Of a stretch of DNA of 64,000 nt, positions 27,567 to 50,604 are shown piece after piece. The position numbers were made by a program, and so were the translations under genes. Every line of letters begins with the position of its first letter. Positions within the stretch are counted from its first letter, which is position 1. The stretch comes from Acidobacteriota bacterium. Its GTDB lineage: Bacteria; Acidobacteriota; Blastocatellia; RBC074. The stretch covers positions 69,443-133,442 of the forward strand of contig JAFDVI010000001.1 of the NCBI GenBank assembly GCA_018269055.1. The letters are read 5' to 3'. The notes below the pieces were generated by a model. The model was given only the letters and a program-made list of their open reading frames with translations. It had not been told where the DNA came from and searched no databases.

Positions 27567-27738
27567 GCTGAAACTCCTGAATGTATCATTCCCGGAATTA
27601 GGGTAATGCGAGAACTGGCGAAGGGTACTTACATTCTCCTTACAAATTTCGACAGCGGCAGAAGTTACGGCTCCGGCCAGGGGCGTAGAATGTTTGAGGG
27701 ACAAGCTGGCGGCTTGTTCCTCATCTTCGGTGGGTTTT

Positions 27739-29610
27739 TCAGTGAACAATGACCGGCACGCTGACATGCGAAGGAAACTGTTTCGACCGATGAATGCTGT
27801 GTGTTGCTTTGATGTAATCGGCGTCCGTCGCTTTGAAAATGTTCGGCACGAATTTTTGCGGGTTGCGGTCAATGATCGGGAACCACGAGCTTTGCACCTG
27901 CACCATCATCTTGTGCCCCTTCAAAAACCGATGATTGCAATACCGCATGTTGACGGCGAATTCGTTGATCGCGTTGGGCGCTAACGCTTCCGGTTTTTCA
28001 AAGCTCTTGTGGAACCGCCCGCGAAAGACTTCGTTGGCGACCATCAATTGGTACCCGCCCATTTTTACATCCTGCGGATAATTTTCGGGATACACATCAA
28101 TCAACTTGACGATCCAATCGGCGTCCGAACCGGTTGTTGACGCGAACAAATGGCCTACGACGTTGCCGCTGATGGTCAGGTCTTCCGTCAACGAATCAGT
28201 TTCCCAGCTCAGCACATCCGGTCTCCCTTGCGCAAAACGTTGATCGCCAACCAGCCACGCGCCCCAACCGGAACCGCGCGGATCGTAAGTGGCTTCGACC
28301 GGGCGCGGACGATACGGAACAGGGTTCGCCGGATCGGAAACGTAACTGTCCGCAGCCTGGCGGCTGACATCCGTTGGCGCGTCAAACGATAATTTGCCGT
28401 TGGCTTGAAAATGCAGCTTGCGCATTTCGGTTTTGTAACTTGGCGGCCATTGGTCGTAACTACGCCATTCGTTCGATCCGGTTTCAAACACATTCGCTTC
28501 TTTCCACGTTGGTGTGCCTTTGTCCTTCAGGTAATAGGCAAAAAAAGGAGCTTCGATTTGCTGGCGGTATTGCAGCGAGATGTTTCCGCCGAATTGAATC
28601 TTGCCCAAACTGCTGCCGTCCGCGCGCGCCCAACCGCCGTGATTCCACGGGCCGCCGACAAAGAAGTTCTGCTTCTGCGGATCGTTCTTTTCAAACTCTT
28701 CGTAAATTTTGACCGGGCCGTAAAAATCTTCCTGATCCCACCAACCGGCCACGTTCAACGTCGGCACCCGCGCCTGTTTCAAATATCCGGCGGCAGCCTG
28801 TTCCTGCCAGAACCGGTCGTAATTCGGATGCTCTACAAAATCGTTCCACGTAAGGATTTTGCCGTGCAGGTATTTTTCGTTGACGTTCGACAGCGCGCCC
28901 AGCCGCAAATACCACTCGTAAGTGTCGTACTTGTCGAATTCAAACCGAGCCTGTTCCTTGTTGGTTTCCATCATCGTCGCGTATTCAAACCCATAGCTGA
29001 GCCGGAACGCGCCGTTGTGATGAAAATCGTCGCCCATCCACATATCCGCCGGAGACGCTTGCGGCGAAGCCGCGCGCAAGGCCGGGTGCGGCGCAATCGT
29101 CGCCATCATCGCCGTCCAGCCCGGGTAGGAAATGCCCGTGATGCCTACGCGACCATTGTTGTTCGGGACGTTTTTGGTCAGCCATTCAATTGTGTCGTAA
29201 GCGTCCGTGACCTCATCAATCCGCTTCGGATCGTTTTTCAGCACAGACACCGGAGCGCGCTGCATAACAAACTGCCCTTCGGATTTGAAGCGCCCCCGAA
29301 TGTCCTGGAAAACAAAGATGTACCCTTCCGCAACCAATTCCTTGAACCGACCAGCTTGCGCCCACCCTTGCCCTGCCTGTGCCTGATACGGCGTGCGCTC
29401 CAAAATGATCGGCAACGGCCCGGATTGGTTTTTCGGCGTGAAGATGTGCGTGTTCAGCTTCACGCCGTCGCGCATTGGAACCATGACGGATTGGAAGTTG
29501 AAGGATGGCGAGGGTTGTTGTCTCGCACCCGCAGGAAAATTTTGTGGAATGGAAAAAATTGCCGCTGCAATAAGCAGGCACACAAAGAATCTAGGTACTT
29601 GACGATTCAT
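27739..29610 (-). CDS. CocE/NonD-family (S15, X-Pro dipeptidyl-peptidase-like) alpha/beta hydrolase, secreted
   Basis: 623 aa. Has a signal peptide, the catalytic GISYPGW (GxSYxG) motif and a large C-terminal beta-sandwich. Confidence 0.8.
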   Translation of the reverse strand: MNRQVPRFFVCLLIAAAIFSIPQNFPAGARQQPSPSFNFQSVMVPMRDGVKLNTHIFTPKNQSGPLPIILERTPYQAQAGQGWAQAGRFKELVAEGYIFVFQDIRGRFKSEGQFVMQRAPVSVLKNDPKRIDEVTDAYDTIEWLTKNVPNNNGRVGITGISYPGWTAMMATIAPHPALRAASPQASPADMWMGDDFHHNGAFRLSYGFEYATMMETNKEQARFEFDKYDTYEWYLRLGALSNVNEKYLHGKILTWNDFVEHPNYDRFWQEQAAAGYLKQARVPTLNVAGWWDQEDFYGPVKIYEEFEKNDPQKQNFFVGGPWNHGGWARADGSSLGKIQFGGNISLQYRQQIEAPFFAYYLKDKGTPTWKEANVFETGSNEWRSYDQWPPSYKTEMRKLHFQANGKLSFDAPTDVSRQAADSYVSDPANPVPYRPRPVEATYDPRGSGWGAWLVGDQRFAQGRPDVLSWETDSLTEDLTISGNVVGHLFASTTGSDADWIVKLIDVYPENYPQDVKMGGYQLMVANEVFRGRFHKSFEKPEALAPNAINEFAVNMRYCNHRFLKGHKMMVQVQSSWFPIIDRNPQKFVPNIFKATDADYIKATHSIHRSKQFPSHVSVPVIVH

Positions 29611-29817: not shown

Positions 29818-32439
29818 ATGTTCGTTCGCAAGTTTCGCGTGGGGCGATGGTTTGTCGCCGCGCTGGCCCTGATGTTGTTTTATGCGTCGCTGATTGTGCT
29901 CTCGTCGGCGCAATCGGCCAAGCCACCTGCGGCAAAATTCAAACCGGCGAATTTTTCCGCCGCCGCGTTTCACGACGACGGCGAGGGGAAGAAAAAAGGC
30001 CCCAGCCGCGAAGATCGCATCCGCGAAGCCTGGGTCTGGCACCAGGCCAATCGGCAACGGTTGATCGAAACCGAAGGCCTGGCCAGTTTGGAAGCGGAGG
30101 TGCCCGCTGAAGACATCAATGACATTTCAGTCATTCAAGCCGACAGCCGCATCGCTACGCCGTCGAATTTCTTTGACCTGACCGGTCGTCAGGTGCAATT
30201 CACACCTTCTGGTTCGGGGTACACGATTTCCTCGACGACCGGAGGGTTTGACGCCAACTTCGGAACGAAGCTCAACCTGACCACATCGCCCGCCGTCAAT
30301 CCCAAAGCAGGAACGGACCCCGGCGATGACGCTTATATCAATCAGGATTTGGGATTCAGCTTCAGTTTTTACGGTTCGTCGTTTACCACGGTGGCGATTT
30401 CCAGCAACGGATTTCTGGCCTTTCGACCGGCGGGGGTAACGCAAACGGATTTTGATTTGGGCGCTTCGGAATCGGGCGAAAGCCTGGCCAAGTTGCAAAC
30501 GGGCATTCCGCGCATTGCGCCGTACTGGCACGACCTGGACGCGGAAGCGAGTGTCACGCAAGGAGCCAACGGCATTTACATTCGCAAAGACAGCGATCGT
30601 GTGGTCATCACCTGGAACAACATACGCGATTTTCCAAACGATCCAACCGTAGACAACGGCATTCACCGATTCCAGGCAACGCTGTTCAGCAACGGGCGAA
30701 TTGTGTTTGCTTACGATCAAGCACAGTTGACCAGTTTGGCGCTGACGGGGATTTCCGGCGGAGGGGTGGCGGCTCCCGTGCCGACGTTGGTGAATTTTGC
30801 CAGCCCGTCGGCGTCGGTGATTACAACGCCAATTGCCGAATTCTTTTCCACCAGCTCCAAACTGGATGTGGTCGCGGCGGCGCAGGCGTTTTACACCGCG
30901 CACCCAAACAACGATGTTTATGATTTCGTGTATGTGCTGACCGATTTTCAGTTCGATCTGGGCGATGCGTTCGCGTTTTATTTGCCGCTGCGCAATGACG
31001 CCGCAGGCATCGGGTTGGAAGTCGGGGTGTCATCTGACGCGCTGACCATTAATAGCCAAAAGATTCAGGGCATTCTGAATCTGAGCAACATTTCGCAGGC
31101 ATATCCGGCTTCGCCCGTGACGCGATTTCTGGGCGCCAACCACGCGCTTTCGATCATGGGGCAGGAACAGGGGCATCGCTGGTTGGCGTTTCCGGGCTAT
31201 CCAGGGGCTGATCCAGCGCTGTTGCTGGGACGCGATAATGCGCACTGGAACTTTTTCCTGAACATCGAATCCAACGTCAGCAGCCCGGCAGCGCCGCGCT
31301 CATCCAGCGCCGAAGGCAGCGTTTGGCGCGATAACGGCAACGGTTCTTTTACAACCATCAACCTGATTGATGGGTATTCACGATTGGATCAATACCTGAT
31401 GGGATTGCGTCCGTCCACGGATGTTCTTGACACGTTTCTGGTCGCCAATCCGTCGGGAACCGTGCGCACGCGCGAATCCAATCCTTTCCCGAACGTGACC
31501 GTTTCCGGCACCCGGCAAACCATCACAATGAGCCAGATTTTGCAGGCCAACGGAAATCGCAACCCGAGTTCGGCAACCGCGCCCAAAACCTTTCGCGCGG
31601 CGGTTGTGTTGTTGACGCAGCAAGGCGCACAGGCTTCGCAGGCGACGCTGGACAAAGTCACGCTCTACCGGCTGGCTTGGGAAAGTTACTTCCGCCAATC
31701 CACCGATGGGCTGGCCAGCATCAATACGGGCCTGGCGGACGCGGCGACGGCGCGAACGATCGTGGCGCTGTCCGCCGCCAGCTTCAAACAGACTTTGGCC
31801 GCCGGAGAAATCTCTGCGCTGTTTGGCGCGGGTTTGAGCGGCAGCACTGCCGTGGCAAATTCGACACCGTTGCCGACGACGCTGGCCGGAACGCAGGTAC
31901 GAATCAACGGAACGCCTGCGGGTTTGTTTTTCGTTTCGTCCGGACAGATCAATTTTCAGGTTCCATTGACGACGACAACGGTGACAGGAACCGCGGTCAA
32001 CTCTTCTACCGCATTGATTGAAATTTACAGCAACGGGCAGTTGATTCGCGCCGGGACGTTCCAAATTGCCCCGGTCGTTCCGGGCATCTTCACCACCAAC
32101 CAGAGCGGCACCGGCGCAGCGGCGGCGCTGGACGCGTTCACCTTCACGCCCGGCCCATTCAATGCCAAACAATCCAATGGCCAGCCCAACATCATCGCGG
32201 TGTTTGGAACAGGCCTTGGAGCCGACGTAACCGATACCAATGGCGATGCGGCTGGTTCGACGGCGGCGACATTGGATGGTGCGAATGTTTCGGTGGGGTA
32301 CGCTGGCCGAGCGCCCGGTTTCATCGGATTGAATCAATTCAACATCACCTTCCCGGCAAATATCACGTCGGGCAATCACACTTTGTTGATTTCGCGTAAC
32401 GGCATCGCCGCCCGCGAAGTGACGATTGCCGTCAAATAA
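29818..32439 (+). CDS. Secreted hypothetical protein with a C-terminal Acidobacteria-type (TIGR03437-like) domain
   Basis: 873 aa with a signal peptide. The C-terminal ~250 aa (QINFQVP...IIAVFGTGLG...GRAPGFIGLNQFNITFP) are paralogous to the C-termini of the genes at 34224 and 53612. Confidence 0.7.
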   Translation: MFVRKFRVGRWFVAALALMLFYASLIVLSSAQSAKPPAAKFKPANFSAAAFHDDGEGKKKGPSREDRIREAWVWHQANRQRLIETEGLASLEAEVPAEDINDISVIQADSRIATPSNFFDLTGRQVQFTPSGSGYTISSTTGGFDANFGTKLNLTTSPAVNPKAGTDPGDDAYINQDLGFSFSFYGSSFTTVAISSNGFLAFRPAGVTQTDFDLGASESGESLAKLQTGIPRIAPYWHDLDAEASVTQGANGIYIRKDSDRVVITWNNIRDFPNDPTVDNGIHRFQATLFSNGRIVFAYDQAQLTSLALTGISGGGVAAPVPTLVNFASPSASVITTPIAEFFSTSSKLDVVAAAQAFYTAHPNNDVYDFVYVLTDFQFDLGDAFAFYLPLRNDAAGIGLEVGVSSDALTINSQKIQGILNLSNISQAYPASPVTRFLGANHALSIMGQEQGHRWLAFPGYPGADPALLLGRDNAHWNFFLNIESNVSSPAAPRSSSAEGSVWRDNGNGSFTTINLIDGYSRLDQYLMGLRPSTDVLDTFLVANPSGTVRTRESNPFPNVTVSGTRQTITMSQILQANGNRNPSSATAPKTFRAAVVLLTQQGAQASQATLDKVTLYRLAWESYFRQSTDGLASINTGLADAATARTIVALSAASFKQTLAAGEISALFGAGLSGSTAVANSTPLPTTLAGTQVRINGTPAGLFFVSSGQINFQVPLTTTTVTGTAVNSSTALIEIYSNGQLIRAGTFQIAPVVPGIFTTNQSGTGAAAALDAFTFTPGPFNAKQSNGQPNIIAVFGTGLGADVTDTNGDAAGSTAATLDGANVSVGYAGRAPGFIGLNQFNITFPANITSGNHTLLISRNGIAAREVTIAVK

Positions 32440-38625: not shown

Positions 38626-39780
38626 ATGGATCGTAGAGATTTCGTCAGGTTGTTGGCCGCGACTCCGTTGTCATCGGCGTTTCCGACGGCCAAACCCGGC
38701 GACAGAATCATTCCCAATTACAAAACGGTGACGCCGTACAAGCCTGCGGCTTCGCCGGGAATGCCCGGCCCTTATCCCGGCAGAGTCATTTCCGTGAAAT
38801 CGTCCAACTGTTTGGACGCGAGTGGTGACCACATCAACGCGGAAGTCGTTCACCAGATGATGACGCGCGGAATGACCGAACTGACCGGGGACAAGGACGC
38901 GCGCGATTCGTGGCGGCGATTCATTTCGCCGGATGACATCATCGGCATCAAGGTGAATGTCGGCGGGTATCCATGGGTTATGTCTTCGCCTGCCGTTGTC
39001 GCCGAATGCATTCGCAACCTGATGGCCATCGGCGTGAAACCGGAACAGATTTACATCTACGAACGGTTTCAAAATCAGATGGACGAAGCCAACTATAAAC
39101 CTCATATTCCCGAAGGCGTGCAAATTCACGCCGCCGAAGGCCGCAACGAACGGTCGGACAACAATCGCTACGATCCATTTGTATATGCCGAAGCCTGTTT
39201 TTTTGGAGAAGAAGACACGCGGTCGAACATGATGCGCCTGATATCGCAGCGCGTGACCAAGATCATCAACATTCCCAACATGAAAGATCACGGCGCAACA
39301 GGTGTGACCGGCTGTTTGAAGAATGTCGCCTATGGCGGATTTTCCAACGTCGCGCGCTCACATCAACATGGAGTGACGCACACATATTCATTCGTACCGA
39401 CACTGACGGCAATGGAGCCGCTGCGGTCAAAAGTCGTGCTGAACATTATGGATGGCATTCGTGCGTGTTGGCACGGCGGGCCGTTCGCCCGAACCAAACG
39501 ATACGTCTTTTATCCGAAGCAAATCTGGTTCGGCACGGATCCGGTGGCGCTGGATCGGTTGCTGGTGGATTTGATTGACAACGAACGCAAATCCCGCAAG
39601 GCCATTTCGATCTGGGATCGCGACCGAAAATCCCTGGATTTCATCAACGGCGGCAATCGCGACCGTGACCCGAACGTCAACATCTTGATCCGCGAACCCG
39701 GCCACGTGGATTACGCAGCGAAACTGGGACTGGGAATTTCCGACCTGAAGCAAATCAAACAGAAGGAAGTTGAAATATGA
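38626..39780 (+). CDS. DUF362-family protein with a Tat signal peptide
   Basis: Twin-arginine motif MDRRDFVRLLAA. The core IIGIKVNVGG...KDHGATGVTGCLKN is DUF362-like. Confidence 0.55.
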   Translation: MDRRDFVRLLAATPLSSAFPTAKPGDRIIPNYKTVTPYKPAASPGMPGPYPGRVISVKSSNCLDASGDHINAEVVHQMMTRGMTELTGDKDARDSWRRFISPDDIIGIKVNVGGYPWVMSSPAVVAECIRNLMAIGVKPEQIYIYERFQNQMDEANYKPHIPEGVQIHAAEGRNERSDNNRYDPFVYAEACFFGEEDTRSNMMRLISQRVTKIINIPNMKDHGATGVTGCLKNVAYGGFSNVARSHQHGVTHTYSFVPTLTAMEPLRSKVVLNIMDGIRACWHGGPFARTKRYVFYPKQIWFGTDPVALDRLLVDLIDNERKSRKAISIWDRDRKSLDFINGGNRDRDPNVNILIREPGHVDYAAKLGLGISDLKQIKQKEVEI

Positions 39781-40712
39781 AGCTGCTGGCAATCATATTG
39801 CCGCTGATCTTTTGGCAGGGCGGCATTGAAACGGTTCCGGCGTTAAAACAGGCGGGAATCGAACGCCTTGCGGTCGCGTCGGAAAAAGCCGATGCCTGGC
39901 GCAAAGCCGGGTTCGATGTTGTGCCGATGACCGAAACCGAATTGAAATCCCGCGAAAAGCTGTTAACGCCCGGCGCTGCCGGACGCCCTGGTTTGGCGGC
40001 GGCAACAGGTCGTCCGTGGGTGGACGCCAACGGTTGGCAATTTACACGCAATCCTGCGGGCAAGTTTTATTACGAACTGCCCAAGGGGCGCGCGGCGCTG
40101 GCGGTTGCCGAAAGCTTCGCTTACAACGCCGACACGGTTCTGAAAATTGACCCCGCCGATTTGGCCGAAGTCGGTCGCATGTTGGCGTTTTTGAAATCAG
40201 TTCCCGCAAACGAAGATTTGCCGCTCATTGCCGACATTGGCGTCATTGACGACGGTTCAAAACTGGTCGGCGAAGTGATGAACCTGCTTTCGCGCCGCAA
40301 CCTGCTGTTCAAACCTGTCAAAGCGGCTTCGCCTCGGCTCAAGTTGACCATTCAACTCGGAACCAAAGCTTATCCCAGAGCCGCAGCCGCCGACCCGAAC
40401 GAATTCGCCCAATCCATTCGCAAACGGCTGACCGACGAAGCCAGAACCTTGCGGATTTATGGCAGCGAAGTCGTTGTCGCTCGATTGACCGGTGACGACA
40501 AACACATCCGATTGCATTTGTTGAATTACGGACGGCGCGATTTTGATGGAACGCGAATCCGGCTTTTGGGCATTTTCGGCAAAGGCAACGTCTTTGTTTC
40601 CGGACAGGGAAAATCCGAACTAATGGATTTCGTAGTGATCGGGCAAACCACTGAATTTTCTATTCCGCGAATGAGCACTTACGCGGTGATTGATTTATCA
40701 TTGGCTAAATAA
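39777..40712 (+). CDS. Hypothetical protein, translationally coupled to the DUF362 gene
   Basis: ATGA overlap at 39777-39780. 311 aa. I recognise no domain. Confidence 0.45.
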   Translation: MKLLAIILPLIFWQGGIETVPALKQAGIERLAVASEKADAWRKAGFDVVPMTETELKSREKLLTPGAAGRPGLAAATGRPWVDANGWQFTRNPAGKFYYELPKGRAALAVAESFAYNADTVLKIDPADLAEVGRMLAFLKSVPANEDLPLIADIGVIDDGSKLVGEVMNLLSRRNLLFKPVKAASPRLKLTIQLGTKAYPRAAAADPNEFAQSIRKRLTDEARTLRIYGSEVVVARLTGDDKHIRLHLLNYGRRDFDGTRIRLLGIFGKGNVFVSGQGKSELMDFVVIGQTTEFSIPRMSTYAVIDLSLAK

Positions 40713-40930: not shown

Positions 40931-41998
40931 ATGCGAACTCTGAAAATCTTTTTTGTCGCTGCTTTTTTAATCGCGCCGCTATCACCGGTGGTTTCATCGA
41001 AGATGACGGCGTTGATGACAAGGTTTTCAGCCAATTCTTCAACCGTTGAGGCTGCGGCGGTTTCCGATCCGAAGCAGTCCAAACCCATTGACGCTGGGCA
41101 GTATGTCGGCAGCGAATCTTGCGCCGAATGCCACGGCGGCGAAGCCACCCATTATGCGTTGACGGCGCACGCTAAAACCAAGGTATTAAATTCTCCAGTT
41201 GATAAAACCGGATGCGAAGCCTGTCACGGCCCAGCACGCGGGCACCTGGACTTTTACCTGGCCATTCAGAAACTCAACCAAGCCGGGAAGGAAGACGAAG
41301 CCACGGCGTTGATGAATGACACGGCCAAAGCCGCCGCCGCCAAATTGAACTCCTTCAAGGAAATGTCCGCCGCCCAATCCACGGCTATTTGCCTGAAGTG
41401 CCACGAAGGTTCTCAAGGGAAAAGCGAAGAGCGATTCAACTATCGTCGCAGCGAGCATTCCCGGCACGGCGTGTCCTGCAATGATTGCCATTCATCGCAT
41501 GAACCCAAGCGGACGGAATTTCTGTTGAAAGGCACGGAACCCAATCTGTGTTATCAATGCCACGCCGAACAAAAGGCGTCTTTCTCCAAACCGTTCCACC
41601 ACAAAGTTCCCGAAGGCGGAATGAAATGCTCCGATTGCCACAATCAACATGGCGGTTTTATGGGCAAATCGCTTCGCAATTCGGTTACCGGCGATGCAGC
41701 CTGCATCAAATGCCACGCCGACAAAGCGGGACCATTTGTGTTTGAACACGCACCGGTCAAAGTCGAAGGTTGCCAGGCTTGCCACACGCCACACGGTTCA
41801 ACCAATCCGAAATTGCTAACCCGAAACACAATCCGATTCCTGTGCATTGAATGCCATTCCAACACAGCCGGACTGGAGGTTGACGGAACCGGAATTGGCG
41901 GCGCGGCGACACATGACCAGTCGCAATTGCGTTATCAAAACTGCACGGCCTGTCACATTGAAATTCACGGTTCGAATAAAAACCGAGCCTTCCGCTAA
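40931..41998 (+). CDS. Decaheme c-type cytochrome (MtrA/DmsE/PioA-like periplasmic multiheme cytochrome)
   Basis: Ten CxxCH motifs in 355 aa (CAECH, CEACH, CLKCH, CNDCH, CYQCH, CSDCH, CIKCH, CQACH, CIECH, CTACH). Has a signal peptide and an AAGGAG RBS. Confidence 0.85.
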
Positions 41999-42012
41999 GA
42001 AAAGGAGACAAG

Positions 42013-44160
42013 ATGAAAACATATCGTCATCCAATTCGTTTATGGCTCTCCCGGACTTGCGTGGGGGCAATCACGGTGATGTTGATCGCATTTGGCGCGC
42101 TCACCTACGCCCAAAGCGTAGAAAAAGCAGAAACCAGTCAGCAGGCCAGAGAGGCCGAAAGCGAACTGGAACGCGCCAAAGCCATCGTCACCAAACCACA
42201 AGACAACAAACCCAGCAAACCAGAAACAGGGCGCACATGGGGGATTTATTCCACGACCAGTTCGCTTGAATTAGGGTATCGGTTCGTTGACACCAGCGGC
42301 AGCATTTCCCGCTATCTGTCGGACGTCAACGTTCGCGATGGATTCCGCGTCCTGGAATCTTCGTTGGATATGCGCGCCCAACCCGGCACAGGAATTCTGT
42401 TTGATTACCTGCACGCCGACGTAAACAACGCGGGCGGTGATCAAGCCCAGACATTCTCCTTGCGAATGGACAAAACGAAATGGTACCGCTTCGATGGTAA
42501 CGTTCGGCGATTCAATTACTACCGTTCGCTTGGCCCGAATTTCGCGCTCGGTTTGCGGGATTACGACCTGCGCCAACAGGTTTCGGATTTCAATCTGAAA
42601 TTGTTGCCGCAACGCGCCGTTCGTTTCAATCTGGGATACGGTCGCAGCATGGCCAAAGGCCGCTATACCCCGACGTACTATTCTCAAAGCGATATTTTCC
42701 AGCTTTTGGGCGACACCCGCTGGGAATCCAATGATTATCGGTTGGGAATGGATGCAAGCTACCGTAGGTGGAACTTCAACGTGGAACAACTATATCGCGA
42801 GTTCCGCAATAACCCTGAGCTGACGACCAAAACCGGCGGCGATCTGGGATTCAACGCCACGGACAACGGCAAACTCGCCACGCTGACCCGTGTTACGCCC
42901 CTGCGTTCTCACGCTCTGGTATCCAGAGCCAGCATCAACGGAAGCATCACGGATGATTTGCATCTGGTCTTTCGTGCGTTACACGATGAAGAGCGGATGA
43001 CGGGGCAATACGCCGAAGTCCTGACCGGAACCAGCAGCACTAACCTGCCGGTTCTGTCTGCGACCATCAACTTTCCCAATGCCGGCGCTACGATAAAACG
43101 GCCCAGCGACAAAGTTGATGCGGGAATCAGCTATGACCTGGGCAAACATTTCACCATCAGTGATACGTTTAGCTATACGGCCTTCAAAATTCTTGGCTAC
43201 GGTGAAGTCCTGACAACCACAATGACGCGAGCTGCGTCCGGCAACACGACCACGTCGTTTTCCGATGTGATCAACAAAGATTACCTGACAGATCTGACCT
43301 CTTACTGGAATACCCTGGAATTGGGCATGACCTGGAGCCGAAAATTCAGCGCGAATCTGGGATGGCGCGCTCAGCAGCGCGACGTAACCCTGTTAGGCAC
43401 CCGCCTGACAGTGACCAGCCCGCTTTCAGCGTCGAATCCGGCCCTCAAGAACGAAGAGGAATCCATCGGCACGCACGCGTTCATCGGCGGAATGCGGGTT
43501 CGCCCGACGAAACAGACGAGCTTTATGTTCGATGTGGAAAAGGGTGAAAATAACAACGCTTTCGTCCGAATCAACCCGCTCGACTACACACGCTTCCGTG
43601 TGAGAGCGCAGGTACAGGTCAGTGACAAACTGCAATTTTCGGGCGTCTTCACCTCACTGGATAAGACCAACCCGACGCCGCAGGTTAACAACGATTCGAA
43701 TTCGCGCAGTTATACGATTGCCGTCAATTATGAACCCAAACAACGGGTGATGATTGACTTGGGATACGATTACCATCATCTGGATGCCCAGGGAGGCATC
43801 GTGTACAGAATTCCGATCAATGGTGTCACCACACAGGTCACCGGGACATCGTATTACTATGCGCGGATCAATTCCTTTTATGCCAACACGCGGTTTGGGT
43901 TGACCAACCGGCTCGATCTTTTGATGGCCTATTACTACATCATGGATCGTGGCGCACCGACGGTTTCTTTGGGGCCAAACGATTTCGTGAATTCGTACCC
44001 ACTGAGACGGCATAACCCGGAAGCCCGATTGGCCTATCGGTTCACGAACAACGTGACCGGCAACTTGAGTTACCGGCACTACAGCTACAACGAACGCGAT
44101 TACTCGGTGCAGGATTACCGCTCGAACATCCTGACAACCAGTTTGCGATTCACTTTCTAA
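42013..44160 (+). CDS. Large outer-membrane beta-barrel protein (MtrB/PioB-like porin partner of the upstream cytochrome)
   Basis: 715 aa. Has a signal peptide and alternating amphipathic beta-strand periodicity rich in Y/G/T/N. The C-terminal OMP beta-signal ends in ...LRFTF. An AAGGAG RBS lies 14 bp after the cytochrome stop. Confidence 0.7.
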   Translation: MKTYRHPIRLWLSRTCVGAITVMLIAFGALTYAQSVEKAETSQQAREAESELERAKAIVTKPQDNKPSKPETGRTWGIYSTTSSLELGYRFVDTSGSISRYLSDVNVRDGFRVLESSLDMRAQPGTGILFDYLHADVNNAGGDQAQTFSLRMDKTKWYRFDGNVRRFNYYRSLGPNFALGLRDYDLRQQVSDFNLKLLPQRAVRFNLGYGRSMAKGRYTPTYYSQSDIFQLLGDTRWESNDYRLGMDASYRRWNFNVEQLYREFRNNPELTTKTGGDLGFNATDNGKLATLTRVTPLRSHALVSRASINGSITDDLHLVFRALHDEERMTGQYAEVLTGTSSTNLPVLSATINFPNAGATIKRPSDKVDAGISYDLGKHFTISDTFSYTAFKILGYGEVLTTTMTRAASGNTTTSFSDVINKDYLTDLTSYWNTLELGMTWSRKFSANLGWRAQQRDVTLLGTRLTVTSPLSASNPALKNEEESIGTHAFIGGMRVRPTKQTSFMFDVEKGENNNAFVRINPLDYTRFRVRAQVQVSDKLQFSGVFTSLDKTNPTPQVNNDSNSRSYTIAVNYEPKQRVMIDLGYDYHHLDAQGGIVYRIPINGVTTQVTGTSYYYARINSFYANTRFGLTNRLDLLMAYYYIMDRGAPTVSLGPNDFVNSYPLRRHNPEARLAYRFTNNVTGNLSYRHYSYNERDYSVQDYRSNILTTSLRFTF

Positions 44161-44183
44161 CTTCGACTAACACCGGCTGAAGC

Positions 44184-44221
44184 AAAAGGCGCAGGCATTA
44201 AACCTGCGCCTTTTGTTTTTG
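44184..44221. terminator. Bidirectional intrinsic terminator
   Basis: aaaaGGCGCAGGcattaaaCCTGCGCCttttgttttt: a perfect 8-bp GC stem with an A-tract upstream and a T-tract downstream. It serves the + strand beta-barrel gene and the convergent - strand gene. Confidence 0.8.
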
Positions 44222-44272
44222 TTCAATCGTCCGTTCTCTTCAGATTCTTTTCTCTACCTTCAGCCAACCTTT

Positions 44273-45157
44273 TCACATAGGCAGCGCGAAGCGCGGTTGA
44301 TAAAGACCATCGGTTAGCACAGCGGTCTCTTGAAAAAGTTGCACTACGCTTTTGACGGCGTCGTCGAGTTCCGCCGCCGAACTCCCCAGATGCGCCAACG
44401 TTTGTTGAACACGCGGGGCGAACGCGCGCGGTGACAATGCGAATTCAGCGACCTCAGCCAGCGCCGTCTTGTCATTGAGCAGGTACTGACGATTTAAGGC
44501 GAACAACACCAGGATCAGTTGATTTACCGCGCGCGTCAGGCAAGCGGCAGTCCCGTAAGCATCCTCACGAGCCGCAAATTTGCGCGCAAACGCCGCCAGG
44601 TTGAATTCCACCTGCCAGAGATAATCCTGCACCACCGCCCGGCGCAGCTCTTCTGGGTAATTCGCTACGCGTTGCTTCAGCACATCAAGCCGGGCATCAG
44701 GATCGAACAAGGGGATACAAATCGAGGTTTCGCCGAGGTAGGTTCCGCTGAAAAACCCGAAAGGCGGTTGCTGGGCATAATCAAGCGCGTAACGCCCGGC
44801 TTCCGCCTCGGCAATGACCCGCTCCACATGTTCCAGACTGCGGTAAATGAAATCCACGCGCTGCCCGCCAATGGTTAGCCACGCCCCGCCGTTGACCCAA
44901 GGGCCCCAGCCGTAAAAGTCCGTCACCACAGGATTGGCGGTATCATTGATGGATTCAGCCAGTTCGCGAATGTGTCGAATCGAAAAAGGAGAAGCCTCGG
45001 AATAGAACAAGCCAAGATCAATATCCGACCCGGTTTTAGCGCGTCCACGCGCATGTGAACCGCCCAGGACAACGGCCATGATTCCACTGACCACACGAAG
45101 CTGCTCTGTAAGAGAAGACAATAATTCGCGTTGTTCCGTTGAGAGTTGCTTCATCAT
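44273..45157 (-). CDS. Nucleotidyltransferase-domain protein (Pol-beta superfamily; ANT/KNTase-like)
   Basis: NTase motif GSHARGRAKTGSDIDL (GS-x9-DxD) with a C-terminal helical substrate-binding domain. Confidence 0.6.
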   Translation of the reverse strand: MMKQLSTEQRELLSSLTEQLRVVSGIMAVVLGGSHARGRAKTGSDIDLGLFYSEASPFSIRHIRELAESINDTANPVVTDFYGWGPWVNGGAWLTIGGQRVDFIYRSLEHVERVIAEAEAGRYALDYAQQPPFGFFSGTYLGETSICIPLFDPDARLDVLKQRVANYPEELRRAVVQDYLWQVEFNLAAFARKFAAREDAYGTAACLTRAVNQLILVLFALNRQYLLNDKTALAEVAEFALSPRAFAPRVQQTLAHLGSSAAELDDAVKSVVQLFQETAVLTDGLYQPRFALPM

Positions 45158-45278
45158 GAAGGCTCCTGCCTGAATGCCGCGCTAAAAGTCGCGACGTGAT
45201 TCAGGGAATTACCACTCAGGTTTTTGATTTTGTCCAGCGAACTCTCGACGAATCACACAATCACTTTCTGGTTGCCGA

Positions 45279-46916
45279 TCAATAATTCATGCCAATGATC
45301 TCACCGCGATCGTCCACATCCAGCTTGGCGGCTTGCGGAACTTTTGGCAGCCCCGGCATCAACATCATCGAACCGGCAACCACAACGACAAAGCCTGCTC
45401 CAGCGGACAGGTGGGCATCGGTCGCCGTCATCGTCCACCCCTTGGGGGCACCCAGGACTTTCGGATTGTCCGATAGTGACGAAGGCGTTTTGGCAATGCA
45501 CACCGGCAATTGACTAAAACCAAGCGCCGCGAATTTCTTCAGCTTCTTGCGGGCTTCGGAATCAAAATACACCGACCCTGCGCCATAGATTTCTTTGGCT
45601 ACGCGTTCGACTTTTTCTTCCAACCCCAATTCCGCCGGGTAAAGAGAAGTCACGGTTTCCGCATCGCTGGTGTCGGCAACGGCCATGACTTTCGCGGCCA
45701 ATTCCATCGCGCCCTCACCGCCTTTGGTGTAAACCTCGACGATGGCGCTCTCGACTTTGGCTTCGCGGCAAAATTCCTTTATCGCGGCAACTTCTTCGTC
45801 CGTATCGGTGGTAAAGCGATTGATGGCGACCACGACCGGAACTTTGTACTTGCGCAGGTTTTCCAGGTGTTTTGCCAAATTTGCCAACCCGCGCCGCAAA
45901 TTGTTCAAGCTCGTGTCATCAGGAAAATCCGCCGAACCGCCGTGCGCGGCCAAGGCTCTGGCTGTGGCAATCAACACGGCGGCAGAAGGTTTCAAGCCGG
46001 ATTTCGGCATGACCAGGTCGAAGTATTTTTCCGCGCCGAGGTCGGCTCCAAAACCGGACTCATTGATCACGTAATCCGCCAGTTTCATCGCCATCTTTTG
46101 TGAAATGACACTGCTGGTTCCGTGCGCAATGTTGGCGAATGGGCCTGTGTGAACAAACGCAGGCGTGCCTTCGGTCGTTTGCGCCAGATTCGGCATGATC
46201 GCTTCGTTGAGCAACACCATCAGCGCGCCGGTCACATGCAAATCCTTTGCGCGAATCATCTGTCCGTCCAGGTTGTACCCCAAAACGATCTCATCCAGTC
46301 GGCGACGCAAATCTTCGCGCGATTTGGCCAGCCCCATAATCGCCATGACTTCGGAAGCTGCCGTGATCACAAACCCGGTTTCGCGCGGAACCCCATTCAT
46401 TTTGCCGCCTAATCCGACGATGATATGCCGCAATGCGCGGTCGTTCATATCCATCGTGCGCGGCCAGAAGATGTTGTCCACATCAAAACGCAACTCATTG
46501 CCGTGATGCAGATGCGAATCAATTGCCGCTGCCAGCAAATTGTGCGCAGTCGTCATAGCGTGAAAGTCTCCGGTGAAATGCAGGTTGATGCGCTCTGCGG
46601 GCAACACTTGCGATTTTCCGCCGCCTGTTGCCCCGCCCTTCAATCCGAACACTGGCCCCAACGACGGTTCGCGCAACGTTACAATCGGACGTTTGCCGTG
46701 GCGCTCGATCGCCTGCGCCAGCCCGATGGAAACGACGGTTTTGCCTTCGCCGTGGCTGGTCGGTGTCATCGCGGTCACCATAATAAATTTGGCCTGTTTC
46801 GGCGATTTCCATTCGGTCAACAATTCCATTTTCAGCTTGGCCATGTGCTGGCCGTAATACACCAGATAATCATTTGGGATATTCAGTTTTTCAGCGATTC
46901 GTTTAATTGGGAGCAT
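45279..46916 (-). CDS. fhs: Formate--tetrahydrofolate ligase
   Basis: 545 aa. FTHFS motifs are PTSHGEGKTVVSIGL and GLKGGATGGG. Identity is clear over the full length. Confidence 0.9.
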   Translation of the reverse strand: MLPIKRIAEKLNIPNDYLVYYGQHMAKLKMELLTEWKSPKQAKFIMVTAMTPTSHGEGKTVVSIGLAQAIERHGKRPIVTLREPSLGPVFGLKGGATGGGKSQVLPAERINLHFTGDFHAMTTAHNLLAAAIDSHLHHGNELRFDVDNIFWPRTMDMNDRALRHIIVGLGGKMNGVPRETGFVITAASEVMAIMGLAKSREDLRRRLDEIVLGYNLDGQMIRAKDLHVTGALMVLLNEAIMPNLAQTTEGTPAFVHTGPFANIAHGTSSVISQKMAMKLADYVINESGFGADLGAEKYFDLVMPKSGLKPSAAVLIATARALAAHGGSADFPDDTSLNNLRRGLANLAKHLENLRKYKVPVVVAINRFTTDTDEEVAAIKEFCREAKVESAIVEVYTKGGEGAMELAAKVMAVADTSDAETVTSLYPAELGLEEKVERVAKEIYGAGSVYFDSEARKKLKKFAALGFSQLPVCIAKTPSSLSDNPKVLGAPKGWTMTATDAHLSAGAGFVVVVAGSMMLMPGLPKVPQAAKLDVDDRGEIIGMNY

Positions 46917-46960
46917 GTGAAACCTCCATTTGGATGATTGCAGTTTTTGACATCAAATGT

Positions 46961-48355
46961 TTACGATTCTTCCAGCACAAAAAAACCGGTTTCTCCGCCG
47001 CCGGAAGTCACATTCACAATCGGAGAATCCGACAATCGCACCATCGCGCCATGAACCTGGCCGCGAAACAGAAACGGGTTTGTATCCACGAACATCGGTT
47101 GCAGCGTCCAACTGCTTTCGTTGAAGACGGGAAACTCCTCGGTTTGCAGTTCCAGTCTTTCCTGGGCGATGTAATCGCCGCCCAGCGCTTGTTGCAGCGC
47201 TTGTTCCCATTCGCTCTGGCTTAATTGGTCGCCAAAGAAAATGCCGTGGCCGCCGTAATCATCGTTCGGTTTCAAAATGAATTCGGTTCGATGCCGTCGA
47301 AGATGTTCCAGCCAATCCACGTTTTGATGGCGATAGGTTGTTTTTCGATCCAGGACGCGCCGCGTCCACGGCACACAACTTTGGATCACTTTCTGTTCTT
47401 TGCTTGTGAACCAGTGCTGATTGGCATCATCGGTCAGCAATTCAAAACAGGCTTTTTTGTGCAGGAGCTTGCAGCGAAGCGGGTTGACCAGGCACACGGC
47501 GCGATCGGCATAAGCGCGAATCAACGGGTGCTCATCATCATACCGATTCAGAAATTCGTGAATGACGATCCGTTTGTAAACCAGATCAATCCGAAAATTG
47601 CCGCGCCGCAATCGTCCCTGGCTGTATTCGATTTCATCCGGCGTGCAAATGATCGTCGGAATGCCACGACCAACCAGATAATTTCGCAACAAGATAAATT
47701 CGTGATGCGTCGGCAGGTCAGCCCAATCCAGAATGGCGATATTTGGCTTCCCTGTTCCGCCCCATTCTTTGAATGTGGTCAACAGCGAATCCACCAATCT
47801 GGAAACAGGCGAAAACTGCTGCAAGCGGTATCGTTCCGCCAGCAATTGCAAGGCGCGAACTTCAAATAAGACCTGATTCAACCCTGCCTGATCTGTCAGG
47901 CTGGACGGATTTTCAGCGTTGTATTCGACGAACTTGATCTGGTCGCCTTGAACAAAGGCATCCAATCGCGTGTTGATGGCCGGCATGGAATACCCAGGAT
48001 GTATCCCGGCCAGAAACCGTTCCCTGTCGCTGACTCCGATTCGGTTCATCAGCAATGGTTCCGCGATCATCGCTGCCGCCAATTTATCGAAGGCTCCGAC
48101 CAATATCTGGGATTGATCACGAAGCAATTCATATTGCTGCCGGGTTAGAAAATGCGGTCGCAGAGAAATTCCCAGTTCCCGATTGCCATACAGCAATCGG
48201 TTCGCGCTCATTCCCTGTTTCAGTCGCGCGAACAACTCCGTGGTCAACGATTCATCGCCAGCCAACAGTTCGTGATATTCGGCAATCGCTTTTTCGCGCA
48301 TGCCTTCTGAATACCAATCCGCGTGCCACACCAAGGCGAATCCACTCAACAGCAA
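46961..48355 (-). CDS. Circularly permuted ATP-grasp (type 2)-like protein
   Basis: 464 aa. Composition and motifs resemble the COG2308 / DUF404-DUF407 family. I assign this by overall pattern only. Confidence 0.45.
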
Positions 48356-48683
48356 TATGTTGAATGCATTCGCAGAACAAACGCCGCGTTACAGTTGAAC
48401 TGATTGGTTTTTAGACGACAAGAAAATTCGGCGGTCGGTTTCGCGTTGGCTCAGCAATTGCCTCGTGAAGTACGTAAGTTGATATTTGCAGGGATTGGCA
48501 GAGCAGAATTCCTCAATGCGGCTCAAAATTGCGCAAACAAACGCAAGTTTTCGCAACCATTGCCGCGATCTGCTAACAAATGCTGAATGCGCGCAATCCC
48601 GACTTACAACAATTTTCAGGCGGGAAAATGCCGATTTTCTTTTCTCGCCTGGTTTCCCAGTGTTTCAAGAAAGGAAGCAGGAT

Positions 48684-49493
48684 ATGTATAAGAAACTTTC
48701 CGTGGTTTTCTTGTTCGCATTCTTTGCTGTCGTTGTGCTTTTTGGCTCTGGGGTAAAAGCCATTTCATCTCAGGACCTGCAGGCGGAATTCAAGGACAAC
48801 AATTGCGTGTTATGCCATGCCAGATTGTCCTCGCCCTATCGTCTGACCAGTCGTTATGCGGAATGGCAACTCTCGACTCATAAGGAGAAATCTGTCGGCT
48901 GCGAGAAATGCCACGGAGGTGACCCAGGAAGCAAAGATGAAAAACGGGCGCACGTCGGAATTCTTTCCCCACAGGATACTCAAAGCAAATTGCACCAGAA
49001 GAATTTGCCTGAAACCTGTAACACGTGCCATCAATCCGTCGTCAGTTCATTTACCGAAAGCAAGCATTACCAAAAATTGAAAGAGGCGGGAGTCGGACCG
49101 AGTTGTTCCACTTGCCACGTTCACATGGCCTCGCAAGTCCTTTATACTCCCGAAGAGACGGCAGCAATGTGTTCGACTTGCCATAACTCGCCGAACAAAT
49201 TGATGCCGCTCCGACCGGAAATTCCTGAAAAAGCCAACGAGGTAATGCAAGCGATTCGCCGCGCAAGTACTGTTGTGCTGTGGGCGGATCGGCTCATCGA
49301 ACAGGCTGAAGCCAAAAAGATGGATGTTCGCGACGAAAAGAAAGAACAAAAAATTGCTCGGGCGGTAATGGCTGAGGCCAAATCCAGTTGGCATGCATTC
49401 AATCTCGATGCCGTCCGCAAAAAGGCGGACGATGCCTTTGCAATGAGCACAAAAGTAAAAGACTCAGTGCGGGCAAAGCTTTTTCCCCAATAA
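48684..49493 (+). CDS. Pentaheme c-type cytochrome
   Basis: Five CxxCH motifs (CVLCH, CEKCH, CNTCH, CSTCHV, CSTCHN). Has a signal peptide. An AAGGAAG RBS precedes the ATG at 48684. The ORF-track start at 48486 is an unsupported extension. Confidence 0.8.
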   Translation: MYKKLSVVFLFAFFAVVVLFGSGVKAISSQDLQAEFKDNNCVLCHARLSSPYRLTSRYAEWQLSTHKEKSVGCEKCHGGDPGSKDEKRAHVGILSPQDTQSKLHQKNLPETCNTCHQSVVSSFTESKHYQKLKEAGVGPSCSTCHVHMASQVLYTPEETAAMCSTCHNSPNKLMPLRPEIPEKANEVMQAIRRASTVVLWADRLIEQAEAKKMDVRDEKKEQKIARAVMAEAKSSWHAFNLDAVRKKADDAFAMSTKVKDSVRAKLFPQ

Positions 49494-49538
49494 CAAACCC
49501 CGATCAGACCGCAATTTTTTGCGGAAGGAGACAATTAA

Positions 49539-49895
49539 ATGACCAGATTCACGAGAAAAAGTATCTTTATTGTATTTGTGGCAGTGGCGTTGATCCTTAT
49601 GGCAACCACCATGACTCGCTCAACGGATGCTGCCTATTTCCAAAGCGCCAAATCGCTCTTTGCCCAAAAGTGCGCCGTCTGCCATGGCAATGATGGAGCC
49701 GGCAACACCGCCAAAGGCAAAGAAGTCAAAGCCAGAAATTGGAAAACTGACGCGGAAGTCAAAAAGATGACGGATGCCAAGATGTTGGAAATCGTCTCGA
49801 AGGGCAAAGGGAAGATGGAAGCGTACGAAAAATCACTCGGTAAAGATAAGGTGCAAATGCTCGTCACTTACAGCAAGGAATTGATGGGCAAATAA
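49539..49895 (+). CDS. Monoheme class I cytochrome c (c6/c553-like)
   Basis: A single CAVCH with a distal Met ligand region and a signal peptide. GGAAGGAG RBS. Confidence 0.8.
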   Translation: MTRFTRKSIFIVFVAVALILMATTMTRSTDAAYFQSAKSLFAQKCAVCHGNDGAGNTAKGKEVKARNWKTDAEVKKMTDAKMLEIVSKGKGKMEAYEKSLGKDKVQMLVTYSKELMGK

Positions 49896-49974
49896 TTCCT
49901 CACATCTCAAACTTCAGCCGCAGATCAACGCGCGTCTGCGTTCATCTGCGGCTTCATTTATACGGAGGCTTCAC

Positions 49975-50604
49975 ATGACGGGAACAACGACCATAGTTGT
50001 GGCTGTTATTCTGTTCAGCGTGTTGCTGATTGCCTGGTTGACCATCCGCCCCTCCATCACCACCACCCGTGGCGGCAAGATGTTGGCTTTTGTGGCGCTG
50101 TTGGTCTTTCCGGTTTTGGCCGGAGGCATGGGCGTCAATGAACACATTCAACATTCCAAAACCACCAATTTCTGTTTGTCTTGCCACGTGATGGAAGATT
50201 ACGGGAAAAGTCTGCACGTAGACGATCGCAGCTATATCCCGGCAATTCACTATCAGAACCATTTGGTTCCGCACGATAACGCCTGTTTTACCTGCCATAC
50301 GGATTACACGATGTTTGGCGATTACAAAGCCAAACTGCGAGGTTTGAAGCATGTATATGCGTATTACATCGGCAAACCGATGCAGCCGTTGAAATTGTAC
50401 ACGCCTTACAATAACCGCGAATGCCTGCATTGCCATTTGGGTGCACGTGGATTTGAAGAATCGGAAGCCCACACCAAGGAAGCCGATATGATGGCAAGGA
50501 TCAAGAACAACCAACTCGGTTGCACAACCAGCGGTTGCCACAGTATTGTCCACAACATCAGCAGCTTGAAAGAGGCGACGTTCTGGAAGGAGGAAGGCAA
50601 ATGA
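49975..50604 (+). CDS. NapC/NirT/NrfH-family membrane-anchored multiheme cytochrome (quinol dehydrogenase-like)
   Basis: N-terminal TM helix. Heme motifs CLSCH, CFTCH, CLHCH and a CTTSGCH variant. ACGGAGG RBS. Confidence 0.7.
   Translation: MTGTTTIVVAVILFSVLLIAWLTIRPSITTTRGGKMLAFVALLVFPVLAGGMGVNEHIQHSKTTNFCLSCHVMEDYGKSLHVDDRSYIPAIHYQNHLVPHDNACFTCHTDYTMFGDYKAKLRGLKHVYAYYIGKPMQPLKLYTPYNNRECLHCHLGARGFEESEAHTKEADMMARIKNNQLGCTTSGCHSIVHNISSLKEATFWKEEGK

Follow-up and report, generated by a model that had tools for sequence, protein, structure and literature searches.

Porin-cytochrome conduits mediate electron exchange between Gram-negative bacteria and minerals, electrodes or other cells, and their presence in a genome is used to infer iron cycling. 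Conduits of the MtrAB, MtoAB and PioAB types are well known. The Mto pathway, which combines MtoAB with MtoD/PmcA and either CymA (ImoA) or MtoC, has been described in Sideroxydans lithotrophicus ES-1, Gallionella and Dechloromonas, where it serves neutrophilic Fe(II) oxidation and electron uptake. Shewanella MtrCAB, for which a structure has been solved (6R2Q), adds the surface cytochrome MtrC. PioAB(C) of Rhodopseudomonas palustris TIE-1 pairs a decaheme cytochrome with a barrel, has no surface cytochrome and is used for electron uptake (PMC6831781). Geobacter GSU2203/GSU2204 likewise places a decaheme cytochrome beside an MtrB/PioB-like barrel. Here we describe a relative of these systems in a 64,000-nucleotide stretch of the genome of an uncultured soil bacterium of the class Blastocatellia (Acidobacteriota; contig JAFDVI010000001.1, positions 69,443–133,442; hereafter the window). 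Two adjacent plus-strand genes encode a decaheme c-type cytochrome (40931–41998) and a 715-amino acid (aa) outer-membrane β-barrel protein (42013–44160). We consider it probable (about 0.8) that the two form an electron conduit of the MtrAB/MtoAB/PioAB type. An earlier note on this DNA had proposed an MtrAB/PioAB-like module, and the proposal is supported by a curated family model (TIGR03508), by profile-profile alignment (hhalign), by an MtrB-like fold and by conserved linkage of the two genes. The mechanism itself is not new.

The upstream gene of the pair encodes a 355-aa, predicted periplasmic cytochrome with ten CxxCH motifs, at residues 64, 95, 154, 183, 207, 233, 258, 281, 305 and 338, in agreement with the size and heme count that the earlier note gave for 40931–41998. 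Its N-terminus resembles a Sec signal peptide, as judged by eye. The protein scores 244.1 bits against TIGR03508, the model for DmsE-family decaheme cytochromes (cutoff 192.2 bits), and covers profile positions 1–257 of 258; given the E-value of 1.6e-72, it is not a chance open reading frame (ORF). Pfam recognizes three copies of Paired_CXXCH_1. Aligned with the MtrA chain of the Shewanella structure (6R2Q_A; E=1.1e-35, residues 39–350), the protein matches heme for heme, with all ten motifs collinear, and differs by an insertion of ∼30 residues between hemes 2 and 3. The search of MtrA/DmsE models suggested in the earlier note thus gave a score over the curated cutoff, accompanied by a full-length match to the MtrA crystal chain, and membership in the MtrA/MtoA/PioA/DmsE family is established from the sequence. 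Within this family the cytochrome is unlike PioA in that it is MtrA-sized and so lacks an extended N-terminal region. It is also unlike GSU2203, whose family model (NF041028) it matches at 205.6 bits, under the 325-bit cutoff.

The downstream gene encodes the putative outer-membrane barrel sheath, a remote homologue of MtrB/PioB. Its coordinates, its length, its distance of 14 bp from the decaheme gene and its terminal LRFTF are exactly as the earlier note reported them. The 715-aa protein begins with a signal peptide ending in TYA (followed by QS), continues through a conserved N-terminal stretch of ∼45 residues into a barrel at residues ∼79–715, and closes with LRFTF, an outer-membrane β-signal. 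A C-terminal F is found in 181 of ∼218 full-length members of the family. Curated models do not recognize the protein: at E≤10 it has no match in Pfam or NCBIfam, including PF11854 and TIGR03509, so the search of MtrB/PioB models that the earlier note had proposed came back empty. As a positive control, the MtrB of a Photobacterium mtrCAB locus scored 551 bits on TIGR03509. Public copies of the barrel are unnamed or called ‘hypothetical protein’, and none carries a precomputed Pfam domain. The family is large. We found 193 word-indexed homologues, and a profile of 27 Blastocatellia members retrieved 1301 representatives of 50%-identity clusters at E≤1e-3, 681 of them at E≤1e-10. None of the 10 distant members tested matched PF11854.

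Comparison of profiles places the barrel next to MtrB/PioB. For this comparison we used a 61-member alignment of the barrel family (A2), a Blastocatellia-only alignment (A1) and a 30-member alignment of PF11854 (MtrB/PioB) proteins (A3). Aligned with hhalign, A2 and A3 matched at a probability of 99.7% (E=2.3e-25) over 579 columns with 16% identities. The match is collinear, running from query residues 79–715 to MtrB residues 46–656, from the first strand through the C-terminal Phe. With the columns of A3 reversed, the probability fell to 5.4% (E=0.007). A1 matched A3 at 96.2% (E=2e-9), and its reversed control at 0.5%. The reversed profiles took the place of a TonB-dependent receptor as negative control, as our search of the window for such a receptor found none. 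Among the 61 relatives in A2, 26 match NF041027, the model of the GSU2204 family, and four match TIGR03509. All of these matches are weak; the NF041027 scores inspected individually were 17–21 bits, against a cutoff of 350 bits. A review table lists the GSU2204 family as MtrB/PioB-family outer-membrane barrels (PMC13188914). Unlike GSU2204, the window barrel contains neither CxxCH nor selenocysteine, and it does not match NF041027. Since PF11854 and TIGR03509 fail to detect it, we assign the barrel to a divergent sister family of MtrB/PioB, one with common ancestry and a common fold that the curated models do not capture.

One further sequence feature separates the window barrel from Shewanella MtrB. 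The mature protein has no cysteine and therefore no N-terminal CxxC. This motif is absent from all 27 close relatives and is present in 23 of the 30 sequences in the MtrB/PioB set, which are mostly gammaproteobacterial; it is a signature of the metal-reducing gammaproteobacterial MtrB and not of the whole MtrB/PioB family. Ahead of the barrel, residues ∼34–75 (within 42013–42240 of the window) form a highly conserved, charged and partly helical segment, modeled at low confidence and without counterpart in the aligned part of MtrB. Residues A33, Q34, E37, K38, T41, A55, K61, K66 and G73 of this N-terminal stretch are invariant. The segment may serve for docking in the periplasm.

The predicted structure agrees with the profile comparison. 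An AlphaFold2 (AF2) model built on A2 (pLDDT 88.5, pTM 0.80) is all-β from residue 74 to the end, and replaces a mediocre first model from a shallow alignment (pLDDT 71) that had given the same ranking of TM-scores. In a Foldseek search of the Protein Data Bank (PDB), the top match of the A2-based model was MtrB (6R2Q_B), with TM-scores of 0.63 and 0.69 normalized to query and target, respectively, and an rmsd of 7.0. TM-scores to 22-strand TonB-dependent receptors were 0.33–0.44 for the same model, and those to LptD were 0.34–0.45 for the first model. The β-barrel that the earlier note had predicted is thus borne out, with MtrB as its best structural match. Of the note’s more specific description, a barrel of 26 to 28 strands, the large all-β MtrB-like fold stands and the strand number is only bracketed, at about 26–29 strand segments in DSSP.

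The arrangement of the two genes is that of a compact operon. The decaheme gene ends in a TAA stop at 41996–41998, and the barrel gene begins with an ATG at 42013. The 14 bases between them (41999–42012) contain an AAGGAG ribosome-binding site for the barrel gene, which implies co-transcription; AAGGAG lies 6–7 bases 5′ of the start codon in both genes. The order, decaheme then barrel with a short spacer, is that of MtrA and MtrB in Shewanella. A non-coding stretch of 218 bases precedes the decaheme gene. After the barrel gene, an intrinsic terminator at 44180–44225 (plus strand; inverted repeat I6) consists of a GC-rich hairpin (GGCGCAGG/CCTGCGCC) followed by TTTTGTTTTTG. A simple terminator scan did not list this hairpin; folding confirmed it, with a ΔG of −29.3 kcal/mol and z=−6.1, and none of 200 shuffled sequences was as stable. 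With ribosome-binding sites, a 5′ non-coding stretch and a strong hairpin with a T-tract after the barrel gene, the pair looks like a self-contained bicistronic operon in the window.

The pairing is conserved among relatives. We searched for the window genes by tblastn in 60 related loci from species-representative genomes, all of them Acidobacteriota or Blastocatellia metagenome-assembled genomes (MAGs) and none an isolate. The earlier note had called the genome Acidobacteria-like, which is confirmed both by this distribution and by the 100% identity of the barrel to a deposited ‘MAG: Acidobacteria bacterium’ protein. Many of the related MAGs carry the title ‘uncultured Heliomicrobium sp.’ or ‘Heliobacteriaceae’, which are names of Firmicutes; the loci so titled are 60–88% identical to those of Blastocatellia MAGs, and this looks like an artefact of record naming. 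Among the 50 informative Blastocatellia loci, those with room for a gene upstream of the barrel, 49 have a decaheme gene directly upstream, with exactly ten CxxCH motifs in 48; the sole exception is a broken barrel match. The linkage extends to more distant members of the family. In five loci whose barrels are only ∼23–29% identical to that of the window, a cytochrome with ten CxxCH motifs lies immediately upstream in four.

The pair belongs to a larger conserved set. In many related loci the genes for a pentaheme cytochrome, the decaheme cytochrome, the barrel, a monoheme cytochrome c and a tetraheme cytochrome of the NapC/NirT type are contiguous. In the window, as in its nearest relatives, ∼4.3 kb separate the decaheme-barrel pair from the other three genes downstream (48684–50604 in the window, 4.3–6.4 kb from the pair). 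Three unrelated minus-strand genes, for a nucleotidyltransferase, a formate-tetrahydrofolate ligase and an ATP-grasp protein, occupy the interval (44273–48355). That the trio flanks the pair in many relatives and is separated from it in the window indicates a local rearrangement in which the pair moved as a unit. A search for repeats around the displaced pair found repeats of the heme motifs only and no insertion scars. The three downstream genes, which the earlier note overlooked, are the true conserved partners of the pair.

All three partner genes encode c-type cytochromes on the plus strand. The first (48684–49493) specifies a pentaheme cytochrome, 269 aa long when read from the ATG at 48684 (the ORF as called mechanically opens at 48486), with five CxxCH motifs and matches to the Pfam families Cytochrome_C7 and Cytochrom_NNT. 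It has a hydrophobic N-terminal signal or anchor and an Ala/Lys/Glu-rich C-terminal tail. Its gene is present in 32 of the 60 related loci and directly upstream of the decaheme gene in 19 of 46. The second gene (49539–49895) encodes a 118-aa class I monoheme cytochrome c (PF13442, 44 bits). Its closest solved relative is the heme domain of CcoP from cbb3 oxidases (E=9e-12), and C45, C48, H49 and M93 are invariant among 49 sequences. In 36 of 50 related loci this gene immediately follows that of the barrel, and we regard its product, by analogy, as corresponding to MtoD and PmcA, which are small monoheme carriers of the periplasm. The third gene (49975–50604) encodes a membrane-anchored tetraheme cytochrome of 209 aa, with three CxxCH motifs and one CX4CH, that belongs to the NapC/NirT family (PF03264, 37.3 bits, cutoff 24.1). 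In 22 of 46 related loci its gene follows that of the barrel at a distance of no more than 1.3 kb. As a candidate quinol/quinone oxidoreductase, it would be the counterpart of CymA/ImoA. Between the monoheme and NapC-type genes, a 16-bp inverted repeat (49916–49953; 94% complementary, six-base loop) may act as an internal attenuator or as a hairpin that stabilizes the mRNA.

The inner-membrane component comes in two forms. In a second variant of the cluster, seen in L037 (12690–16511), L045, L046 and L053 and in part in L019 and L029, the NapC-type gene is replaced by one for an 11-heme protein of ∼707 aa. This protein has a C-terminal multi-transmembrane, putatively b-type, domain like that of CbcL and MtoC. 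The same variant carries a 6-heme protein of ∼520–550 aa with a NapC/NirT N-terminal domain. The two variants parallel the two published types of Mto cluster (PMC6295460, PMC10654088, PMC13390432).

In its parts this set matches the Mto pathway of Sideroxydans. Both have a decaheme MtrA-family gene followed by that for a large barrel, a clustered small class I monoheme cytochrome c, an inner-membrane NapC/NirT-type tetraheme or, in sister loci, a multiheme cytochrome with a C-terminal membrane domain, and no MtrC. In contrast to Mto, the barrel here is too divergent for PF11854 and TIGR03509, the monoheme cytochrome is not detectably MtoD-like, a conserved pentaheme is added, and the genes fall into two separate groups in the window. 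The predicted function is here that of an acidobacterium of the Blastocatellia, whereas the hosts of Mto are betaproteobacterial lithoautotrophs. Shewanella MtrCAB shares the heme arrangement and the barrel that the model and profiles match to MtrB, albeit at 16% profile identities, but differs in having MtrC. Pio shares the two-gene plan without a surface cytochrome but has a high-potential iron-sulfur protein (HiPIP), PioC; we find no such gene here, and the carriers are c-type cytochromes. A more remote parallel is the Geobacter Pcc system (OmbB-OmaB-OmcB), in which a porin-like protein and a periplasmic multiheme cytochrome also span the outer membrane. Pcc is described as unrelated in sequence to Mtr, whereas the present pair has ten hemes and is homologous to MtrA and MtrB. 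According to PMC4245776, Pcc has an 8-heme periplasmic and a 12-heme outer-membrane cytochrome, the latter without equivalent here.

These comparisons suggest how the pathway may operate. If the solved MtrAB structure is taken as a guide, the 715-aa product would form a wide barrel in the outer membrane around the ten-heme cytochrome, and the resulting chain of hemes would carry electrons between the periplasm and the cell exterior. By analogy with the Mto and Pio literature, the NapC/NirT-type tetraheme would connect the pathway to the quinone pool. The class I monoheme cytochrome would serve as a periplasmic carrier, and the pentaheme as a further member of what would be a five-protein pathway. 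We put the chance that electrons flow inward, from Fe(II), minerals or reduced humics, at slightly better than even. Electrons would then reach an oxidase through the monoheme carrier and quinone through the NapC-type protein.

We lean toward inward flow for four reasons. First, no cytochrome of the window matches the MtrC/OmcA family, and a heme-motif census of the window and the 60 loci found no such surface cytochrome adjoining the barrel. Second, the list of parts is that of Mto, whose two known inner-membrane variants both recur among the relatives. Third, of the carriers, the one in tightest linkage with the barrel is a class I monoheme cytochrome c with invariant CxxCH and Met and a relationship to CcoP. 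Such His/Met cytochromes usually feed terminal oxidases and not low-potential outward chains. Fourth, Blastocatellia are aerobes. A 2026 study of Mto has proposed that MtoD feeds a terminal oxidase (PMC13390432).

Several points count against the assignment, whether as a conduit or as an uptake pathway. In addition to the silence of the curated models, profile searches of the PDB by sequence, with A1 and with A2, returned chance matches only and did not recover MtrB, and the exact strand count of the barrel model is approximate. The NapC-type protein matches the NapC, NrfH and TorC models weakly, far under the NapC/NrfH equivalog cutoffs. MtoD is not among the PDB matches of the monoheme cytochrome at E≤0.01. 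Because three minus-strand genes separate the pair from the trio, their co-regulation in the window is only putative. We found no genes for an oxidase, a bc1 complex or carbon fixation in the window. Finally, the direction of electron flow is not readable from sequence (Baker et al., PMC8805035).

The alternative that survives best is the same conduit run outward, which we judge a substantial possibility, if somewhat short of even. The cluster would then be a minimal MtrAB-type pathway in which the NapC-type protein oxidizes quinol, the pentaheme shuttles electrons across the periplasm, and the decaheme cytochrome in its barrel hands them on to the exterior. Soluble or chelated Fe(III), Mn(IV), humic substances and flavins are conceivable acceptors, which would allow a mainly aerobic heterotroph to respire in hypoxia. 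NapC/NirT/CymA proteins are classically quinol dehydrogenases, and the pentaheme is similar to the low-potential NrfB/c7-type carriers found in reductive chains. The gene content of the window is heterotrophic, with peptidases, glycosidases and a sulfatase. MtrA-family cytochromes are, moreover, reversible, and MtrCAB can be run both ways (PMC8805035). Against outward flow stand the lack, in the window and beside the barrel in the 60 loci, of an extracellular decaheme lipoprotein of the MtrC/OmcA type, and the invariant His and Met of the CcoP-related class I carrier, the most tightly linked of the set. The barrel also lacks the N-terminal CxxC that Shewanella MtrB reportedly requires for Fe(III) reduction.

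Far less likely is a DmsEF-like role, in which the conduit would feed a dedicated extracellular reductase, for example a DMSO or iodate molybdoenzyme, rather than exchange electrons with metals. The best family model of the decaheme cytochrome is indeed named for DmsE, and DmsEF is an MtrAB paralogue without MtrC (PMC8805035; PMC9732548). However, no gene for a molybdopterin oxidoreductase or Fe-S subunit adjoins the pair in the window or occurs in the conserved cluster of its relatives, where the neighbors are all c-type cytochromes, and this absence of an adjacent reductase makes such a role improbable. That the 715-aa product belongs to some unrelated kind of outer-membrane protein (a TonB-dependent receptor, usher, LptD-like protein or generic porin) and happens to lie beside an independent periplasmic decaheme cytochrome is effectively excluded: the lack of a direct match to MtrB/PioB models and Foldseek E-values for TonB receptors in the range of that for MtrB would allow it, but the search at E≤10 detected no domain of the plug, TonB-box, usher or LptD kind, the TM-scores clearly favor MtrB, the profile match to MtrB/PioB has a clean reversed control, and adjacency to a decaheme gene is near-universal even where barrels have diverged to ∼23–29% identity. 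The TonB-receptor or usher identity that the earlier note had named as the refuting case is thereby rejected.

The genes immediately upstream of the pair do not belong to the conserved set. The earlier note had pointed to a Tat-exported DUF362 protein and a coupled gene. Both are present: the DUF362 gene (38626–39780; PF04015, 69 bits) encodes an N-terminus, MDRRDFVRLL, that looks Tat-like by eye, and its stop overlaps the start of a 311-aa ORF (39777–40712) by four bases. The 311-aa protein has no match in Pfam or NCBIfam. In the related loci the DUF362 gene occurs in four of 60 and the 311-aa gene in five of 60, all of them close relatives, and we therefore reject the two as partners of the module.

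The distant members of the family show a wider range of neighbors. Of the three with a decaheme gene that we describe here, L068 also encodes a NapC-type protein, a monoheme cytochrome c and a 9-heme cytochrome, and L063 encodes an 8-heme cytochrome and a fusion of a 9-heme cytochrome with cytochrome b. The third, L065 (1–1360 and 2761–5723), carries ResB/CcsA genes for cytochrome c maturation and, on the other strand, genes for a monoheme cytochrome c, a Rieske protein and a cytochrome b (bc1), a context reminiscent of the electron-transport chains of iron oxidizers. The barrel protein P0149 (L066, 7001–9217) has a CxxCH of its own near the N-terminus, at residue 42, and lacks a decaheme gene upstream, where a 267-aa protein without heme motif is encoded instead. 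This is reminiscent of the ‘CXXCH-containing’ GSU2204 family. A gene nearby encodes a copper-ATPase that has a cupredoxin domain. P0212 (L062, 2096–4780; 894 aa) combines the barrel with a monoheme cytochrome c domain at its C-terminus, which can be aligned to the 118-aa cytochrome of the window and has the CxxCH and GKG..M motifs in common with it. P0212 could be a Rosetta-stone fusion. As the single case among 269 family sequences, it may also be an artefact of assembly or gene calling.

Elsewhere in the window, two large minus-strand genes encode sensors. One (20149–25350) is a hybrid sensor kinase of 1733 aa with receiver, PAS and five GAF domains, and the other (25347–27872) combines S1 RNA-binding domains with receiver, GAF and kinase ATPase domains in an unusual architecture. 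An 873-aa ORF on the plus strand (29818–32439) has no Pfam match at E≤1e-4.

Blastocatellia are abundant aerobic acidobacteria of soil and wastewater, considered to be simple organoheterotrophs. According to PMC10654088, Acidobacteria ‘widely’ contain homologues of PioA and PioB, and MtrCAB is known from a few Bryobacterales (PMC8805035). A 2018 survey reported no CymA homologues outside Proteobacteria (PMC6295460). Our search of the literature on Blastocatellia together with Mto, Mtr or porin-cytochrome systems found no prior description of this cluster or of its barrel family. Since curated MtrB/PioB models miss the barrels, only one half of the module is recognized in present annotation, and surveys that demand both an MtrA-type and an MtrB-type match could miss decaheme-barrel conduits of this kind. 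A broader proposal is that the barrel family, with at least 1301 clusters at 50% identity, is a widespread and uncounted branch of MtoAB-like conduits, and that a complete Mto-like pathway supplies uncultured Blastocatellia with additional energy through the uptake of electrons from Fe(II), minerals or reduced humics. We offer this as speculative and, in its full extent, rather unlikely; if it is true, iron-cycling surveys based on hidden Markov models (HMMs) systematically overlook the Blastocatellia. The analysis yields a defined set of five candidate genes for heterologous expression. An Mto-like gene set in this common lineage of soil and activated sludge suggests that its members may have a capacity for extracellular electron exchange.

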